Counted from the stretch's first letter, positions 43,365 to 60,214 are shown. The stretch: DNA of 64,000 bases from an uncultured Muribaculaceae bacterium (GCA_910587235.1 CAJUKD010000002.1:52943-116942); one strand, 5' to 3'. Notes: generated from the sequence alone by a model not told the origin. Program-made: numbers and translations.

Positions 43365-43393
43365 CAAAAAGGAGCCGTCTTCGGCTCCTTTTT
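43365..43393. terminator. intrinsic terminator closing the ncRNA locus
   Basis: GGAGCCG-TCTT-CGGCTCC flanked by an A-run and a T-run. On the minus strand it is a hairpin followed by TTTTTG. Confidence 0.7.
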
Positions 43394-43658
43394 GTATGGG
43401 CCACACCAAAGGATGCGATGAAACTCCGAATAGACAGGATTTGAGTGCTCGCCGTCCTTTGTAATCCGCCTGGCATTAAAGCACCTCTTGCGAGGTCGGG
43501 GCCCGCCATCGGGCGACTAAGCTTGTCTCGGGATTTCAGTTTGATTTGAAGAGTTTCCCAATCTACTTTGATGTGGTATGTCTTTATGCGGGATGTGCAG
43601 CGCCGACGTGCCTCGGCACGTCCCTACTACCCTGCTGCGGCTCTCTTGCCTTTGTTTT
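43394..43658 (-). ncRNA. stand-alone structured non-coding RNA, 6S (SsrS)-like candidate; structured core about 43401-43576
   Basis: It has its own consensus promoter and its own terminator, and I found no convincing ORF in between. The core ends pair over 11 bp (CCACAUCAAAG with CUUUGGUGUGG) and then 8 bp (GAAACUCU with GGAGUUUC). They enclose A/U-rich unpaired strands and internal GC hairpins. Confidence 0.45.
43605..43627 (-). repeat. palindromic intergenic element, copy c
   Basis: Minus strand reads GTAGGGACGTGCCGAGGCACGTC, with 22 of 23 positions identical to copies a and b. It lies in the 5' leader of the ncRNA locus. Confidence 0.8.
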
Positions 43659-51574: not shown

Positions 51575-53308
51575 ATGGCCAAATACGAATTCGAAGGCAT
51601 ATACAGCAAGCCGCCATACGACCGGCTGTCCGAAATCTATCAGCACTCTTTCGCCGACAACTTCAATCTGCCGGCTCTGACAGATTACCTCACGGGCAAG
51701 ACTCTTAAATACGGCGATGTGGCACAACGAATAGCACGCCTGCACCTGTACTTCGAAATGGCCGGCGTACGCCCCGGCGACAAAATAGCCCTGCTGGGAA
51801 AAAACACGCCTACATGGGTGATGACATTCTTAGCCACCATCACCTACGGCGCCACCATAGTGCCCATACTGCATGACTTCACGCCGGCCGACGCGGTGAA
51901 TATAATCAACCACTCCGACGCAGTACTTCTCTTCGCCTCGGACAGCCTGATGGAGCAAATCGACTTCAACGAGATTCCAGAAATCCGCGCGGTGGTGTCG
52001 CTCGACAGCCGCAAAGTCGTGGCCGAACGGGGCTTCGTCAAGATGGGCCGCTATGTGCGCGACCATGCTGTCATAGTGAAGAACCTCAGCCGACATTTCC
52101 GCAAGCGCTATCCGAACGGCTTCAAGCCCTCCGACATACACTATAAGGATGTGGACGGCAACGCCGTGGCCGTGCTCAACTACACGTCAGGCACGACGGG
52201 CTTCTCCAAGGGAGTGATGCTCACCTACGAAAACCTGCGCGGGAACGTTGTGTTCGGCATACGCTCACGGCTGCACTATCAGGGTTCGCGCGCATTGTCG
52301 TTCCTGCCGCTGGCACATGCTTACGGCTGCATGTTCGATATGCTTGTCCCGCTGGCAGTCGGCACCCACGTGACACTGTTCGGCAAACTGCCTACTCCGG
52401 CGCTTCTGGTAAAAGCCCTGAATCAGGTGCGTCCGTCGCTGATAATATGCGTTCCTCTGATTCTTGAGAAAATCTACCGCAAGATGATCGTGCCTATGAT
52501 CACCAAGCCTTCGATACGCTGGGTGCTTGCGGTGCCGATGCTCGACAAGGCTGTCTACGCCCTTATCCGCAGCAAACTCGTGGAAGCTTTCGGCGGTTCT
52601 TTCGAGGAAGTCATCGTAGGTGGTGCCCCGCTCAATCCGGAGGTCGAGGATTTCCTTTACAAGATCAAGTTTCCTTTCACCGTCGGCTACGGCATGACCG
52701 AATGCGCGCCGCTGATAAGCTACACACCCTGGCGCCGCTTCGTGCCCGGATCGGCCGGACGCGTCCTCAAGGACATCATGGAGGCCAAGATAGTGGCCGA
52801 CCACACCCAAAGCAGCCACGACGGACGCCCTCTGGGCGAAATCGCTGTCCGCGGACTCAATGTGATGAAAGGCTATTACAAGAATCCCGAAGCCACCGAG
52901 GCTGCCCTTGACTCCGAGGGTTGGCTGCACACCGGCGACATGGGCACCATAGACAATGACGGCCGCACCATATTCATCCGCGGACGCTACAAAACCATGA
53001 TTCTGTCGGCAAACGGCCAGAACATCTATCCGGAGGAAATCGAGGCCAAGTTCAACAACATGCCTTACGTGTCGGAAAGCCTTGTGGTGGACCGCGACGG
53101 CCACCTTGTGGCGCTTGTCCACCCCGATTCGGATGCCGCCAACGAAGCCGGACTCGATGCCGCCGCGCTTGCGGAGGCCATGGAGGTCAACCGCCGCGAG
53201 GTCAACAAACTGGTGGCTCCGTACGAGAACATAGACAAAGTGGAGCTTGTTGAAAGCGAATTCGAGAAGACTCCCAAACGCTCTATACGCCGCTTCCTTT
53301 ACAAATAG
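51575..53308 (+). CDS. AMP-binding enzyme, long-chain fatty-acid--CoA ligase-like
   Basis: AMP motif YTSGTTGFSKGVML, then GYGMTE, TGDMG and RYKTMILSANGQNIYPEEIE. Confidence 0.85.
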   Translation: MAKYEFEGIYSKPPYDRLSEIYQHSFADNFNLPALTDYLTGKTLKYGDVAQRIARLHLYFEMAGVRPGDKIALLGKNTPTWVMTFLATITYGATIVPILHDFTPADAVNIINHSDAVLLFASDSLMEQIDFNEIPEIRAVVSLDSRKVVAERGFVKMGRYVRDHAVIVKNLSRHFRKRYPNGFKPSDIHYKDVDGNAVAVLNYTSGTTGFSKGVMLTYENLRGNVVFGIRSRLHYQGSRALSFLPLAHAYGCMFDMLVPLAVGTHVTLFGKLPTPALLVKALNQVRPSLIICVPLILEKIYRKMIVPMITKPSIRWVLAVPMLDKAVYALIRSKLVEAFGGSFEEVIVGGAPLNPEVEDFLYKIKFPFTVGYGMTECAPLISYTPWRRFVPGSAGRVLKDIMEAKIVADHTQSSHDGRPLGEIAVRGLNVMKGYYKNPEATEAALDSEGWLHTGDMGTIDNDGRTIFIRGRYKTMILSANGQNIYPEEIEAKFNNMPYVSESLVVDRDGHLVALVHPDSDAANEAGLDAAALAEAMEVNRREVNKLVAPYENIDKVELVESEFEKTPKRSIRRFLYK

Positions 53309-56257: not shown

Positions 56258-56279
56258 AAAACTCAATAACTAAAAAAAA

Positions 56280-56317
56280 CGGCTCCGTGTCGATTTCTGA
56301 CACGGAGCCGTTTTTTT
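56280..56317 (+). terminator. intrinsic terminator of the M16 peptidase gene
   Basis: 12-bp stem CGGCTCCGTGTC / GACACGGAGCCG followed by TTTTTTT. Confidence 0.75.
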
Positions 56318-56563: not shown

Positions 56564-58207
56564 TCAGAAGCGGAAACCTGTAGAGAGGACTACGTTGTGA
56601 TTGTTCTCTGTAAGGTCGGCTTTCGGCGCACGGATGCCGGCATAGTCGGTGTAGGCGTGGAAACTGCCTGTGCGGTGACGCCAGCTGTAGGTTGCGTCGA
56701 TATACCATGCCTTGTACCGGTAGCCGAGTCCGAAGCTGATATTCTGTGTCGTGTTGGTAAAATTATAACTCAGGTCCGTTCCGGCGGTCACAACCTCGAT
56801 GTCGCCGTTGCGTGCGGCATCCTTCACTCCTGATGTCTGGTAGTTGTAGCCGGCACGTACGCTGAAACGTGGCGTGACGCGGTATTCTGCGCCAAGACGC
56901 ACGATATTTGCGCCTTTATAGTAGTTCTTGATGTCGGAGTTTACGTATTCGTTGCTCTCGAAATTCAGGCCATAATATCCTGACTGGCTCTTAACCCGCA
57001 TTGCGTCGTAGGCCACACGCTCGTAGTCGAGGCTGACGATGGCACGGGGTCCGATGTAGAGCGAAGCGCCAACCATGAAGCGCCAAGGAGCGTTGAGGCG
57101 CGAGTCGTAGCTATAGAGCATGTTGTTTTCGTCGCCTGTATAATCGTTGCCTTTCAGAGGGTTCTGGGTGTCGGGATTGGTGCTTTCGGGAGCGCCGGGG
57201 TTATAGTAGTCGTAGTTGACCGTCGCTCCGCCCTGATGATTGAGAGAATACCATGTGGGAGTGTGGATGGCAGCACCTATGCGCAGCATTTCTATGGGAC
57301 GGAATATGACACCGAATTTCACATTGAAACCGGTTCCGGATATCCATTTCGAGTTGTTCATGGCCCAGTCAGCGCTTCCTTCGACTGTCCGCTGCGAAGG
57401 CAGGGTGTATATATCGGCTTTGTCCATGCTCTCGCTGTAGTAGACCTGACGGTTGTATTCCATATCAAGTATGCCGAAGCCTATGCCCCAGTAAAAGACA
57501 TCGCTGATGTTTCCGCCGAAATCGATATTGTATTCGTCGACATGCCCCGACTCGCGGAATGTGTACTCGGCGTCGCCTACAGTATTGTTGCCGTAAAGTC
57601 CCTTGTACTTATCGTTGTAGACTCCGTCGCCATTGATCATATAAGCATTGTAGGCCAGAATGCTCATCCAGTCGCAGTCGGAATCGAAGTATGGATTATA
57701 CTTTCCGCCGAGACTCAGGTCGGCGGCATTGGTACCGTTCGTAAACGATGCGATATAGTTTGTCATCGAACCGTCGGTAGTGCCGTTATAGCCGTGGCCA
57801 AGGCGCTCGAAAGAGGAAAGACGGCTGTAGCTCACGCCCCAGGAGAAGGAACGCAGCGTCGCGTTATTACCCAGGTTGGCAGTGCCGACATAGCCTATAT
57901 TGTCGAAATAGAACTTGGTATTGTCACGGTCGATTTTCATCGTAGGGGTGGCAGTCGAATAGTTTCGCGCCGATATATTGACGGTAGCGCCTACTTCGCT
58001 GCGACGGTATATGCCTATACCTGCAGGGTTCTGTCCGAGCGTCGAAAGGTCGCCTCCTACAGATGTGAATGCTCCGCCCATGCCGACGAAGCGCGCTGTG
58101 CCGCGCAGCTCCGAGGGCGTTACGGAATATGCGTCGACAGCACTCTGTGCCGTCGCACCGGCAGCTGCAAGAGCCGCCATAGCTGTCAGTAATATCCGGA
58201 TCTTCAT
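56564..58207 (-). CDS. outer-membrane beta-barrel of the FadL/OMPP1/PorV-like type
   Basis: Signal peptide MKIRILLTAMAALAAAGATAQS. The hatch-like N-terminus GTARFVGMGGAFTSVGGDLSTLGQNPAGIG fits the G.G.A....D.....NPA pattern of FadL/PorV families. Terminal ...VLSTGFRF. Confidence 0.7.
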   Translation of the reverse strand: MKIRILLTAMAALAAAGATAQSAVDAYSVTPSELRGTARFVGMGGAFTSVGGDLSTLGQNPAGIGIYRRSEVGATVNISARNYSTATPTMKIDRDNTKFYFDNIGYVGTANLGNNATLRSFSWGVSYSRLSSFERLGHGYNGTTDGSMTNYIASFTNGTNAADLSLGGKYNPYFDSDCDWMSILAYNAYMINGDGVYNDKYKGLYGNNTVGDAEYTFRESGHVDEYNIDFGGNISDVFYWGIGFGILDMEYNRQVYYSESMDKADIYTLPSQRTVEGSADWAMNNSKWISGTGFNVKFGVIFRPIEMLRIGAAIHTPTWYSLNHQGGATVNYDYYNPGAPESTNPDTQNPLKGNDYTGDENNMLYSYDSRLNAPWRFMVGASLYIGPRAIVSLDYERVAYDAMRVKSQSGYYGLNFESNEYVNSDIKNYYKGANIVRLGAEYRVTPRFSVRAGYNYQTSGVKDAARNGDIEVVTAGTDLSYNFTNTTQNISFGLGYRYKAWYIDATYSWRHRTGSFHAYTDYAGIRAPKADLTENNHNVVLSTGFRF

Positions 58208-58250
58208 AAGATAAATCGTTGAAAAGATTGTTTTTGATTGTCAGTTCGGC

Positions 58251-59426
58251 TTACCTGCGGCCGCGTCCTCCGCCACCGCCGCCATGCGAACCGCCGCCAA
58301 ATCCGCCACCGCCTGAACGATGTCCGCCCGAAGCTCCGCTGCCCCACGACGACGAGCGGCTTGGCGAAGACTGGTGGAAGTTGCTGCTGTTGCCCGACGA
58401 GCGGCTGTTACTGTTGCCGCTGTTATAGTTCGAACGTCCGCGACGGCCGTTGCTGCCGCTGTTGTTGTAATTATTGTCGGAAGATGAGGGACGGTACTTG
58501 TTGCCTCCGTTCTGGACAGGAGCTGTCTGATTGTTTTTGTAACGGCCTCTGCTGCCGGGACGTACGGTTCCGTTGGGAGCGATCGAAGGCGTGTTTCCGG
58601 GGCGGTAGGAATTGCCGTTCTGGCCCGGATGACGGTTACCGGATGCGCCTGAATATACAGGACGGTGCGGACGGGAAGCACCGGGAGTCGACGGACGCCA
58701 TGCATGCGACGGTCCGCCCCATCCGGGAGCGTGGCCGGGACACCATCCGTGTCCCCAGCCTGGATACCATGCGGGACCGTACCAGGGATTTCCCCATCCC
58801 CAGCCGAAATCCCAACCCCAGCCGGGAGTAAAGGACAGCGACCATCCGGGACCGTAGCCCCAGTAAGGGGAGTAATAGGGCGAATATGGTCCCCACATGT
58901 AGGAAGGCAGTCCGTATCGCCACGACCATGGCGAAGCCCACGGGTCGGAATCGACTATGTAGACATTGATGTCGGTGGGCTGCGACGATGCAGCATAATA
59001 ATACCTGAGGTCTTCGTCCTTGCTGCCACTGACAACTTCGGGATTATGATAGCGTTCGATACGTCGGGTATAGGCGAAATCGTCGTCCTCGCGAAGAGCC
59101 GACACGGAATCGGAAGTATTATAGTTTCCGCGACGGTTATATGTATCCTCGTCGATATCGAGCGGACGTGCAGGCGCCATGGCACGTTGTGCGACAGCCT
59201 GACTTGCCGGAGCGTCGATATACTCAGGATAGACATTGTTTTTGCGGCTACGGGCTATCGAATCCTGCTTCTGCCGTTCGGCGGCACGACGTTTGGCGGC
59301 CTTTGAGGGCGAGTAGTAGATGTCGTCGTCATAAAAGTCGTCGTCACCGGCAAAAACAATGACAGGAGAACCAGCAGCCACCAGGAAGAGAAGCAACCTG
59401 GAGATGTATTGATTAACTTTTTTCAT
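58251..59426 (-). CDS. secreted low-complexity protein with a Trp/Gly/Tyr/Pro-rich block and a Ser/Asn/Gly/Arg-rich tail
   Basis: Start moved to MKKVNQYISRLLLFLVAAGSPVIVFA (signal peptide, ATG at 59426). The 391-aa ORF ends GGGGFGGGSHGGGGGGRGRR. It stops 43 nt upstream of the barrel gene on the same strand, and I saw no terminator between them. Confidence 0.6.
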   Translation of the reverse strand: MKKVNQYISRLLLFLVAAGSPVIVFAGDDDFYDDDIYYSPSKAAKRRAAERQKQDSIARSRKNNVYPEYIDAPASQAVAQRAMAPARPLDIDEDTYNRRGNYNTSDSVSALREDDDFAYTRRIERYHNPEVVSGSKDEDLRYYYAASSQPTDINVYIVDSDPWASPWSWRYGLPSYMWGPYSPYYSPYWGYGPGWSLSFTPGWGWDFGWGWGNPWYGPAWYPGWGHGWCPGHAPGWGGPSHAWRPSTPGASRPHRPVYSGASGNRHPGQNGNSYRPGNTPSIAPNGTVRPGSRGRYKNNQTAPVQNGGNKYRPSSSDNNYNNSGSNGRRGRSNYNSGNSNSRSSGNSSNFHQSSPSRSSSWGSGASGGHRSGGGGFGGGSHGGGGGGRGRR

Positions 59427-59524
59427 GTTCGTGGCTGTTTTCGTTGTTTCTTCGTTTTGATTTTTCTTTGACATTATGACCGCATGGATCGCATATGGTT
59501 TAATGCGCGCGGTCATTATTTATA

Positions 59525-59532
59525 CAAAAATA
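59525..59532 (-). promoter_or_regulatory. candidate -7 box (TATTTTTG on minus strand) for the Trp-rich protein gene
   Basis: Plus strand reads CAAAAATA, about 100 nt upstream of the ATG at 59426. Confidence 0.4.
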
Positions 59533-59662
59533 ACCATTCCGTCAGAAATTACGGCCGTATTCAGACGATATGCGCCGACAATTATGTTTTTTTTACTATC
59601 GCGGACGGCCCGGCGAGCAATAAAGGCCGCCGGGCCGCGGAATCAGCTATATGTTGTCGAAA

Positions 59663-60214
59663 TCATTTCCGTACAGCAGGTCTTACTTCGTAGGCAGCCA
59701 TGGCTACGGTGAAGCCCCAGTAGATGAAAGCGATGGAAGTAAGGAATGAAACCATCAGCATATCGCTTACGTAACCGGCCTCAAGGAAGAAGAATCCTAT
59801 AAGGCAGAGAAGGATACCGTTGATCACACCGAGCCACCAGTAACGCTGACGACGTCTGGCCGCCGACGACACGAAAGCCTCTATGCCCCAGAATATAAAG
59901 ATAATAGCAAGGAAATAAGGGAATACCATCTCGGAAAGCAGTACGCTGCGCACCAGCATGAAGCCGATGAACATGTCGATCACCCCTCCGGCGAGCCACC
60001 ATCCCCAGCCACGTCCGCGGTTGGGACCCGAGGCAGCACAAAGTTGTACGATACCGGCAAGCACGAGGAGCCAGCCGAAAATCTGCGAAGCCACGGCATA
60101 GCCTGCTGCAGGCCAGATCCAGTATGCGAAGCCGCCGAGCACCAGAAGGATGCCCACCAATAGAATTACCCACCAGTAGCGGGTGGTGCCGATGTAGTTA
60201 AGGTCTGTTTTCAT
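59663..60214 (-). CDS. HdeD/DUF308 family membrane protein
   Basis: RYWWVILLVGILLVLGGFAYWIWP...LLVLAGIVQL is a repeated two-helix pattern typical of DUF308. Confidence 0.65.
   Translation of the reverse strand: MKTDLNYIGTTRYWWVILLVGILLVLGGFAYWIWPAAGYAVASQIFGWLLVLAGIVQLCAASGPNRGRGWGWWLAGGVIDMFIGFMLVRSVLLSEMVFPYFLAIIFIFWGIEAFVSSAARRRQRYWWLGVINGILLCLIGFFFLEAGYVSDMLMVSFLTSIAFIYWGFTVAMAAYEVRPAVRK

Follow-up and report, generated by a model that had tools for sequence, protein, structure and literature searches.

The question raised by this locus is what an outer-membrane barrel and an exported protein with hardly any folded structure have to do with each other. Within a 64,000-nt stretch of DNA from an uncultured Muribaculaceae bacterium (hereafter the window, in which all positions are counted from the first letter), two open reading frames (ORFs) lie on the minus strand. 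The upstream ORF (positions 58251-59516) encodes a Trp/Gly-rich protein, which we call the partner, and the downstream ORF (positions 56564-58207) encodes a barrel of 547 amino acids (aa). Comparison with related genomes revealed that the two genes belong to a conserved module in which both point the same way and a single conserved promoter region precedes the first gene; the two proteins probably form a complex in the cell envelope.

For this comparison, 80 barrel-bearing genome loci (L001-L080) were taken from the best matches listed, 70 of which included sufficient upstream DNA. In 70 out of 70 informative Muribaculaceae loci a homologue of the partner gene is located directly upstream of the barrel gene on the same strand, separated from it by a spacer with a median length of 60 nt (range 25-209). 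The pairing holds down to a barrel identity of 41%, and this adjacency is far beyond chance. The initial annotation, made from the sequence of the stretch alone, had considered that the partner ORF might be frameshifted, absent or not conserved beside the barrel in relatives; what we found is an ORF that is intact and alignable in each of the 70 loci. An apparent frameshift at locus L053 stems from an assembly gap, with a stretch of N in the tail region, and the conserved RGRR end is present in the next frame. A HMMER scan of 1.84 billion representative proteins detected 689 relatives of the partner at E <=1e-3 and 338 at E <=1e-10; for the best 150 of the 689, the match starts near the N-terminus of the protein. 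The intact ORFs and the 689 relatives rule out that the partner is a spurious low-complexity frame. Among the best matches listed, close relatives of both proteins all came from Muribaculaceae or from similar metagenome bins.

The partner gene is best delimited as positions 58251-59426 on the minus strand, stop codon included, which gives a protein of 391 aa starting with MKKVNQ. Start codon 59426 is favoured over the in-frame ATG at 59516 because the homologues begin at the equivalent MK and because independent gene calls on two public contigs likewise yield 391 aa. The alternative ATG at 59516 lies only 9 nt past the -7 box described below. By inspection, residues 1-26 (59349-59426) form a signal peptide with the n-region MKKVNQYISR and the h-region LLLFLVAAGSPVIVFA, followed by the predicted signal peptidase I cleavage site VFA|GDDD. 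The signal peptides of the homologues mostly end in A-x-A|Q, whereas the protein of the window has VFA|G. There is no lipobox cysteine, and none of 70 partner homologues has one after the signal peptide.

Past the signal peptide, the partner falls into three zones. Residues 27-165 (58932-59348) form an acidic N-terminal region, or head, with a net charge of -8 in the family median, and at least two acidic residues are found among the first six or seven of the mature protein. This region carries short conserved motifs in a constant order. The first, (Y)YDDDIYY(N/S/D)(P/A)SK, begins two to four residues past the cleavage site and is followed by a Lys/Arg-rich helix; then come DVDxYNRRG (more loosely DxDxYNRRG), F.YTRRIERFHNPDVV, and finally LxxYYY together with VNIYV. 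Residues D34, D35, D94, Y96, N97, R98 and T120 are invariant in the alignments. Residues ~166-246 (58689-58931) form a neutral block rich in Trp, Tyr, Gly, Pro and Ser with repeats of the PGW or GPSWGW type. In the family this block has a median length of 70 aa, with 40% aromatic residues, 43% Gly/Pro/Ser and a net charge of 0, and GPSWGW-like repeats are frequent. Residues ~247-391 (58254-58688) constitute a basic tail rich in Gly, Ser, Asn and Arg that ends in GGGGGRGRR. Family medians for the tail are 162 aa, a net charge of +19, 53% Gly/Ser/Asn and 12% Arg; it contains conserved R-P(-G) spots and terminates in RGRR in 40 of 70 proteins. Overall, the partner of the window consists of 14.3% Gly, 13.6% Ser and 4.3% Trp, the Trp content rising to 15.8% in residues 166-260. 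At locus L005 (3231-4995, complete genome OX620685.1) a transposase-like ORF of 409 aa is inserted on the opposite strand between both genes; the insertion cuts off the end of the basic tail and leaves the barrel gene intact.

Structure prediction agrees with the claim of the initial annotation that this Sec-exported protein is hardly globular. AlphaFold2, run with an alignment of 50 sequences, returned a mean pLDDT of 50.8, with 251 of the 391 residues below 50, among them the neutral block and the low-complexity C-terminal 145 residues. Past the signal peptide only four short helices were predicted (residues 40-62, 93-99, 129-133 and 138-146), some confidence was reached only near the conserved motifs, and the model contained no beta structure, no beta-solenoid and no amyloid-type repeat. 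The partner matched nothing in Pfam and NCBIfam, none of 50 family members had a meaningful match in Pfam, and a profile search of the PDB with the N-terminal 140 residues retrieved no relative. Searches of the full-text literature for this pairing or for Trp/Gly-rich envelope proteins, as well as for FilD and for type IX secretion (T9SS) in Muribaculaceae, returned nothing relevant. Judged by its sequence and the predicted models, the partner represents a modest, coherent family of exported, largely disordered proteins that has not previously been described in Pfam, NCBIfam, the PDB or the full-text literature. As the two ends and a few internal motifs are fixed while the middle preserves composition only, the partner would bind through short linear motifs.

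The barrel gene (56564-58207, minus strand) encodes a predicted signal peptide (residues 1-20, cleavage ATA|QS) and a protein that AlphaFold2 models as 14 long strands with short periplasmic turns and long external loops (pLDDT 74.7, pTM 0.75). A Foldseek search of the PDB placed E. coli FadL (1.7e-17) and PaFadL (2.2e-17) first, followed by the BamG chains BtBamG (9hiv_F, 7.5e-16), FjBamG (9n2d_B) and PgBamG (9hjm_F), which range to 5.5e-14, together with TbuX (2.1e-15) and TodX (4.4e-15); identities are 11-15% throughout. A profile made from 19 homologues matched TbuX, CymD, a FadL homologue of P. aeruginosa and TodX in the PDB (E 1e-5 to 0.2); here, the hatch aligns with the hatch of TbuX, and similarity is also found in the C-terminal strands. 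The Pfam family Toluene_X (PF03349) reached 22.8 bits, which is under its gathering score of 29.7, and some barrel homologues carry a precomputed PF03349 match. The only names given to the barrel in public records are "outer membrane protein transport protein" and "hypothetical protein". The hatch signature noted in the initial annotation is present as GMGGA...D...QNPAG, the spacing having been miscounted by two residues, which is immaterial; in the 19 homologues N60, P61 and A62 of the motif GMGGAF...QNPAG are invariant.

Conservation across 80 barrel sequences is highest in residues 21-70 (57998-58147), which comprise an apparent N-terminal extension and the hatch (LRGTARF.GMGGAF...QNPAG). 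The mean frequency of the top residue is 0.75-0.84 in this region as compared to 0.53-0.77 in the strands, and the value is 0.75 for residues 21-41 ahead of the MGG hatch motif. By comparison with TbuX and the FadL sequence, the N-terminus may be ~7-10 residues longer than those of FadL and TbuX. The long external loops are partly conserved, with variable tips in L1, L3 and L4. Their predicted net charge is conserved and negative (family median -16), while that of the periplasmic turns is ~+1. Residues 142-209, 330-368 and 405-431 fall in predicted external loops and correspond to 57581-57784, 57104-57220 and 56915-56995 of the window, respectively.

The assignment in the initial annotation to barrels of the FadL or PorV type stands in its first half: the fold, the 14 strands and the NPA hatch are those of FadL, whereas PorV is ruled out at the family level, since NCBIfam PorV_fam (NF033709) gave 34.7 bits against a cut-off of 90 (E 1.4e-8). 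No PorV chain was among the top 50 Foldseek matches. Identity with BamG is likewise ruled out at the sequence level. Up to E = 10, neither the family profile nor an N-terminal query of 122 aa matched BamG chains 9hiv_F, 9hjm_F or 9n2d_B in the PDB, and the BLASTP table for BtBamG lists a separate, single match in Duncaniella sp. B8, with residues 24-413 aligned (PMC12578637). The Duncaniella loci L075 and L078 carry the 547-aa type. As no BamG sequence match was obtained and Duncaniella possesses both a BamG-type match and the 547-aa type, the barrel can be regarded, on profile and model evidence, as a distinct long-loop clade of the FadL superfamily.

The promoter region ahead of the partner gene is conserved as well. 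The sequence TATTTTTG at positions 59525-59532 fits the Bacteroidetes -7 consensus TAnnTTTG (PMC7366714), as the initial annotation had read it. A TAnnTTTG box is found within 200 nt ahead of the partner gene in 65 of the 70 loci and inside the spacer in 1 of 70, which argues for one promoter region serving both genes. The assumption that transcription starts from this box was borne out in so far as there is one conserved promoter region; the box may not be its sole or main promoter, since a second element follows. This bipartite element, TTAAAC-N17-GTCATA (59475-59503), lies between the -7 box and the partner start codon. Its family consensus is T(T/A)AAC-N17-GTCTAA with fixed spacing, from which the copy of the window differs at two positions in the second half-site. 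In 47 of the 80 loci there is exactly one exact match, always at the same place (e.g. L004:3660-3687 and L019:3787-3814), and of the 71 sequences comprising the window and the 70 loci, 60 fit a relaxed pattern; by chance, 0.55 occurrences per 64 kb are expected when one mismatch is allowed. The interior of the element is not conserved, RNAalifold found 0 pairs over the 47 sequences, and Rfam found nothing at this leader element. The empty Rfam result and the lack of pairs rule out an RNA motif or riboswitch; the element is a DNA signal rather than an RNA structure.

The element matches the pattern of promoters recognized by sigma factors of the extracytoplasmic function (ECF) type, namely a -35 motif ending in AAC, a -10 motif of the (C)GTC type and a fixed spacing of 16-17 nt. 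CGTCTAA is the -10 motif of Neisseria sigma-E (PMC2893595) and is present in S. meliloti RpoE1/E3 promoters (PMC6180224), and ECF promoters of Flavobacterium are marked by a CGT -10 box (PMC9723704). Thus, the element looks like an ECF-type -35/-10 promoter. Since its two halves form an imperfect inverted repeat (TTAAAC versus TTAGAC), it might instead be an operator; the strictly kept asymmetry of the element speaks for a promoter. Probably, the operon is switched on by an ECF-type sigma factor, either besides or instead of the housekeeping -7 promoter. No gene for an ECF sigma factor was recognized among the ORFs of the window, which were read by eye without a profile scan.

Several observations concern the geometry of this region. 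The distance between the end of the -7 box and the start of the element is 1-3 nt in 21 loci, 11-13 nt in 17 and 22-25 nt in a few, and this ~10-nt step suggests helical phasing. At loci L070 (4941-4968) and L077 (2077-2104) the element is absent ahead of the partner gene and found in the spacer instead, ~26 nt before the barrel start codon; the partners encoded at these two loci are poor in Trp, with 8 residues each. In the window, a leader hairpin on the minus strand (59470-59516; -18.7 kcal/mol, z = -3.7) overlaps the bipartite element and is not conserved elsewhere.

The spacer of the window (58208-58250) comprises 43 nt without a hairpin, T-run or -7 box. With a minimum free energy of -0.4 kcal/mol and no terminator-like site, it accords with the initial description of two genes on the same strand separated by a short gap that is free of a hairpin and U-tract. 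In 24 of the 70 loci, the spacer contains a stable hairpin (<= -17 kcal/mol), which is followed by a T-run in some of them (e.g. L024, L033 and L045). The loci concerned are L004, L008, L009, L013, L014, L016, L017, L018, L020, L024, L027, L028, L029, L033, L037, L038, L041, L045, L067, L070, L072, L075, L077 and L080. Those with a T-run resemble an attenuator or partial terminator, and species with a spacer hairpin may produce more partner than barrel. Some 10-30 nt ahead of the barrel start codon, an (A)CGTTTCAAC(T)-like motif recurs; it is present within the 45 nt that precede the ATG in ~20 of the 80 loci, TTTCAA is found in 20 of 80, and the window reads CTTTTCAACG at positions 58215-58228 (minus strand).

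How might the two proteins work together? The reading we favour, to which we assign a probability of about 40%, is that the barrel docks the conserved N-terminal motifs of the partner and thereby tethers its aromatic block and basic tail to the envelope. The two genes would then encode a dedicated outer-membrane complex, in which a diverged barrel of the FadL superfamily serves as docking platform. The predicted docking segments are the motifs YYDDDIYY, DxDxYNRRG, YTRRIERFHNP and VNIYV, which would contact either the conserved hatch and N-terminal extension of the barrel or its lateral opening, comparable to the way in which BamG holds BamH. The remaining chain, i.e. the neutral Trp/Tyr/Gly/Pro block and the +19 Arg/Gly/Ser/Asn tail, would be tethered to the envelope and might be cohesive or bind polyanions or the membrane interface. 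A physical complex is suggested by the invariant pairing, the short-motif character of the partner, its lack of a membrane anchor and the conserved N-terminus and hatch of the barrel. Since the partner is presumably exported via Sec and signal peptidase I without acquiring a lipid anchor, it would need a protein partner to stay at the membrane. The conserved ECF-like promoter element fits a function in the envelope. With at least two acidic residues among its first six or seven, the mature partner also accords with a rule of thumb for the export signal of surface lipoproteins (PMC12578637). A surface location would fit this acidic N-terminus, the acidic external loops facing the +19 tail and the intercistronic hairpins.

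Precedents from the same phylum make docking plausible. BamG, a FadL homologue, has an extended conserved N-terminus that runs through the barrel's lateral opening, and the protein holds that of the surface lipoprotein BamH, likewise conserved, between two strands of the barrel (PMC12578637, PMC12611786). Its N-terminal part is the most conserved one and contacts BamH (PMC12578637). Residues 21-70 are likewise the most conserved ones of the present barrel. BamG2-BamH2 have been described as a putative operon (PMC12578637), and in Flavobacterium a FadL homologue is co-regulated with a neighbouring lipoprotein (Fjoh_4941-Fjoh_4940; PMC12045153). The statement of the initial annotation that the pairing lacks a characterised counterpart therefore applies to the partner family, which is undescribed, but not to the arrangement as such, which is preceded by BamG-BamH and the putative BamG2-BamH2 operon. 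Both systems share a 14-stranded barrel of the FadL fold, a highly conserved barrel N-terminus, apparently extended in the present case, and partners with acidic residues near the first residue of the mature protein. They differ in that the barrel described here has 547 aa as compared to ~430 and in that its partner is non-lipidated and disordered, whereas BamH is a folded lipoprotein scaffold. Moreover, BamG is tied to BamA, while no such link is known for the present barrel, and Muribaculaceae possess a separate BamG.

Several points weigh against docking. Binding of the two proteins, together with the docking site, the side of the membrane and the sigma factor, is something we infer from genes, fold, disorder, motif plan, synteny and promoter elements rather than from direct evidence. 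The hatch is modelled with low confidence (pLDDT <50 at barrel residues 31-56), which makes the docking site a guess. Sequence similarity between the barrel and BamG is not detectable, so that the analogy is one of fold and phylum only, and the partner is no lipoprotein, whereas BamH is. The retained NPA hatch motif would equally fit a true transporter of the FadL type. The acidic loops (-16) and the basic tail (+19) are electrostatically complementary, which is weak and circumstantial support; outer-membrane proteins commonly have acidic external loops. Finally, as about one third of the species have a spacer hairpin, the stoichiometry may be far from 1:1, which would suit a substrate and its channel at least equally well.

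Docking could be carried further, to a version that we consider doubtful. Here, the partner would reach the cell surface in non-lipidated form. An acidic tag at its N-terminus (DDD among the first seven mature residues) would act like the lipoprotein export signal of Bacteroidota and be clamped in the lateral opening of the barrel, so that a brush of Trp/Arg-rich chains would form a condensate-like coat, which an ECF sigma factor would control and which might attach to mucus, capsule, DNA or adjacent cells.

The make-up of the partner, in which an arginine/glycine-rich block succeeds an aromatic-rich one, fits the "sticker" grammar of condensate-forming proteins, and the suggestion of the initial annotation that it may act in condensates or adhesion is compatible with its sequence. 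The combination of an aromatic block with an RGG block is a pattern that drives cohesive phase behaviour. The resemblance to FUS-type proteins concerns composition only, i.e. evenly spaced aromatics in a Gly/Ser/Pro background preceding an Arg/Gly-rich block; unlike these, the partner is bacterial and extracytoplasmic, prefers Trp over Tyr, has no RNA-binding domain and shows no homology. In Bacteroidota, an outer-membrane barrel coupled to a long disordered segment of the envelope is also known from Dma, with a link to ECF sigma factors. However, Dma unites an 8-stranded barrel and a cytoplasmic anti-sigma domain in one polypeptide, whereas the present module consists of two proteins with a 14-stranded barrel and lacks an anti-sigma domain.

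Among the alternatives to docking, the likeliest is that the barrel imports a hydrophobic nutrient or signal, such as long-chain fatty acids, bile-acid-like compounds or aromatics, and that the partner serves as periplasmic sponge, hand-over factor, regulator or plug of the channel. We regard this as possible, albeit on the unlikely side. FadL of E. coli and P. aeruginosa, TbuX and TodX are the best structural matches (E 1.7e-17 to 5e-15), TbuX, CymD and TodX are also retrieved by the profile, and the 14 strands and the invariant NPA hatch are shared with these transporters (PF03349). The partner has a Sec signal only and no known signal for export across the outer membrane, and its 40% aromatic block could bind hydrophobic ligands. 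However, at 11-15% identity the barrel remains under the gathering score of Toluene_X (22.8 versus 29.7), it is ~120 residues longer than FadL, mainly owing to the long and partly conserved external loops, and it is not obvious what the +19 Arg/Gly tail would contribute to handing over lipids. An obligate partner gene is absent from the FadL, TodX and TbuX systems, and no characterised transporter of the FadL/TodX type is known to require such a partner. The window does contain, 3 kb from the barrel, an ORF that by eye resembles an AMP-forming acyl-CoA ligase (51575-53308, plus strand) and would suggest fatty-acid uptake, but this gene is not syntenic elsewhere (0/80 loci).

Less likely still, the barrel could be the export channel for the partner, which would be threaded or handed across the outer membrane to build a surface layer, matrix or adhesive coat, as CsgA is by CsgG and FapC by FapF. 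Disorder and an abundance of Gly, Ser and Asn are features that the partner shares with known substrates of ATP-independent outer-membrane export. The structural gene comes first and the barrel gene second, with a hairpin or terminator-like site in the spacer of about one third of the species, which would yield more substrate than channel. The aromatic block followed by an Arg-rich one is the sticker pattern of cohesive low-complexity proteins, and acidic external loops would meet a basic tail. Curli and Fap thus resemble the present module in that an unfolded Gly/Ser/Asn-rich exported protein is encoded beside a dedicated outer-membrane protein, but their channel folds differ from the FadL fold. 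The partner model is devoid of the beta-solenoid or amyloid-type repeats that would be expected by this analogy, the +19 tail argues against amyloid formation, and the conserved mature N-terminus and C-terminal RGRR would resemble binding ends more than a secretion signal. The lumen of FadL-family proteins is plugged by the hatch, and none of them is known to pass a polypeptide.

We consider it very unlikely that two independent envelope proteins merely share a promoter without being coupled. Neighbours in Bacteroidales operons are not always partners, but the adjacency of these two genes holds in 70/70 loci while the flanks vary (a DUF308 gene in 43/67 loci, MutS2 in 13/80 and an M16 peptidase gene in 1/80), and the genes remain together even at L070 and L077, where the ECF-like element has moved. 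That the barrel is the BAM-complex subunit BamG or a T9SS protein of the PorV/PorQ kind, with the upstream protein being a client of the usual type, is already largely refuted: the Foldseek matches to the three BamG structures, the BamG-like conservation of the N-terminus, the weak PorV_fam match and the general likeness to Bacteroidota FadL-like barrels that bind and shuttle other proteins are outweighed by the absence of a BamG sequence match, the separate BtBamG match in Duncaniella sp. B8, a PorV_fam score far under the cut-off, the lack of PorV among the top structural matches and a partner that has neither a lipobox nor the folded C-terminal domain of T9SS clients.

The surroundings of the module vary between genomes. 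Upstream of the partner gene, positions 59663-60214 (minus strand) encode a DUF308/HdeD-like inner-membrane protein with six helices (PF03729, 54.8 bits), and in the window the promoter region and a GC-rich hairpin (~59603-59638) lie between this gene and the module. Of 67 informative loci, only 43 have such a gene upstream in this orientation, which rules it out as an obligatory third member. A link of the barrel to the acyl-CoA ligase or M16 peptidase genes is ruled out by the lack of synteny across 80 loci. Downstream, ~250 nt of non-coding DNA extend from the barrel stop codon to a perfect 19-bp hairpin with flanking A/T runs (56273-56317). The M16 peptidase gene and the barrel gene converge on this hairpin, which is likely a bidirectional terminator. 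Further away, positions 43393-43578 (minus strand) match the Rfam family Bacteroidales-1, a suggested 6S-like RNA, with 114 bits, the gathering score being 60.

Muribaculaceae rank with the most abundant bacteria in the mouse gut and occur commonly in humans, yet their cell envelope has hardly been studied. The fold of the barrel and the principle of a FadL-like barrel holding a partner were known before; not described in Pfam, NCBIfam, the PDB or the full-text literature was the family of non-lipidated, apparently disordered partners rich in Trp and Arg. The conserved ECF-like promoter provides a handle on the inducing signal and the remaining regulon. If docking or export holds true, the protein-holding role of FadL-like proteins in Bacteroidota, as known for BamG and PorV, would extend to a non-lipidated disordered client, and the aromatic-plus-arginine "sticker" architecture of eukaryotic condensate proteins would have a bacterial, extracytoplasmic counterpart. 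Should the partner form a surface coat, the module would represent a new route by which Gram-negative bacteria display proteins on their surface, and the FadL fold would gain a new role.

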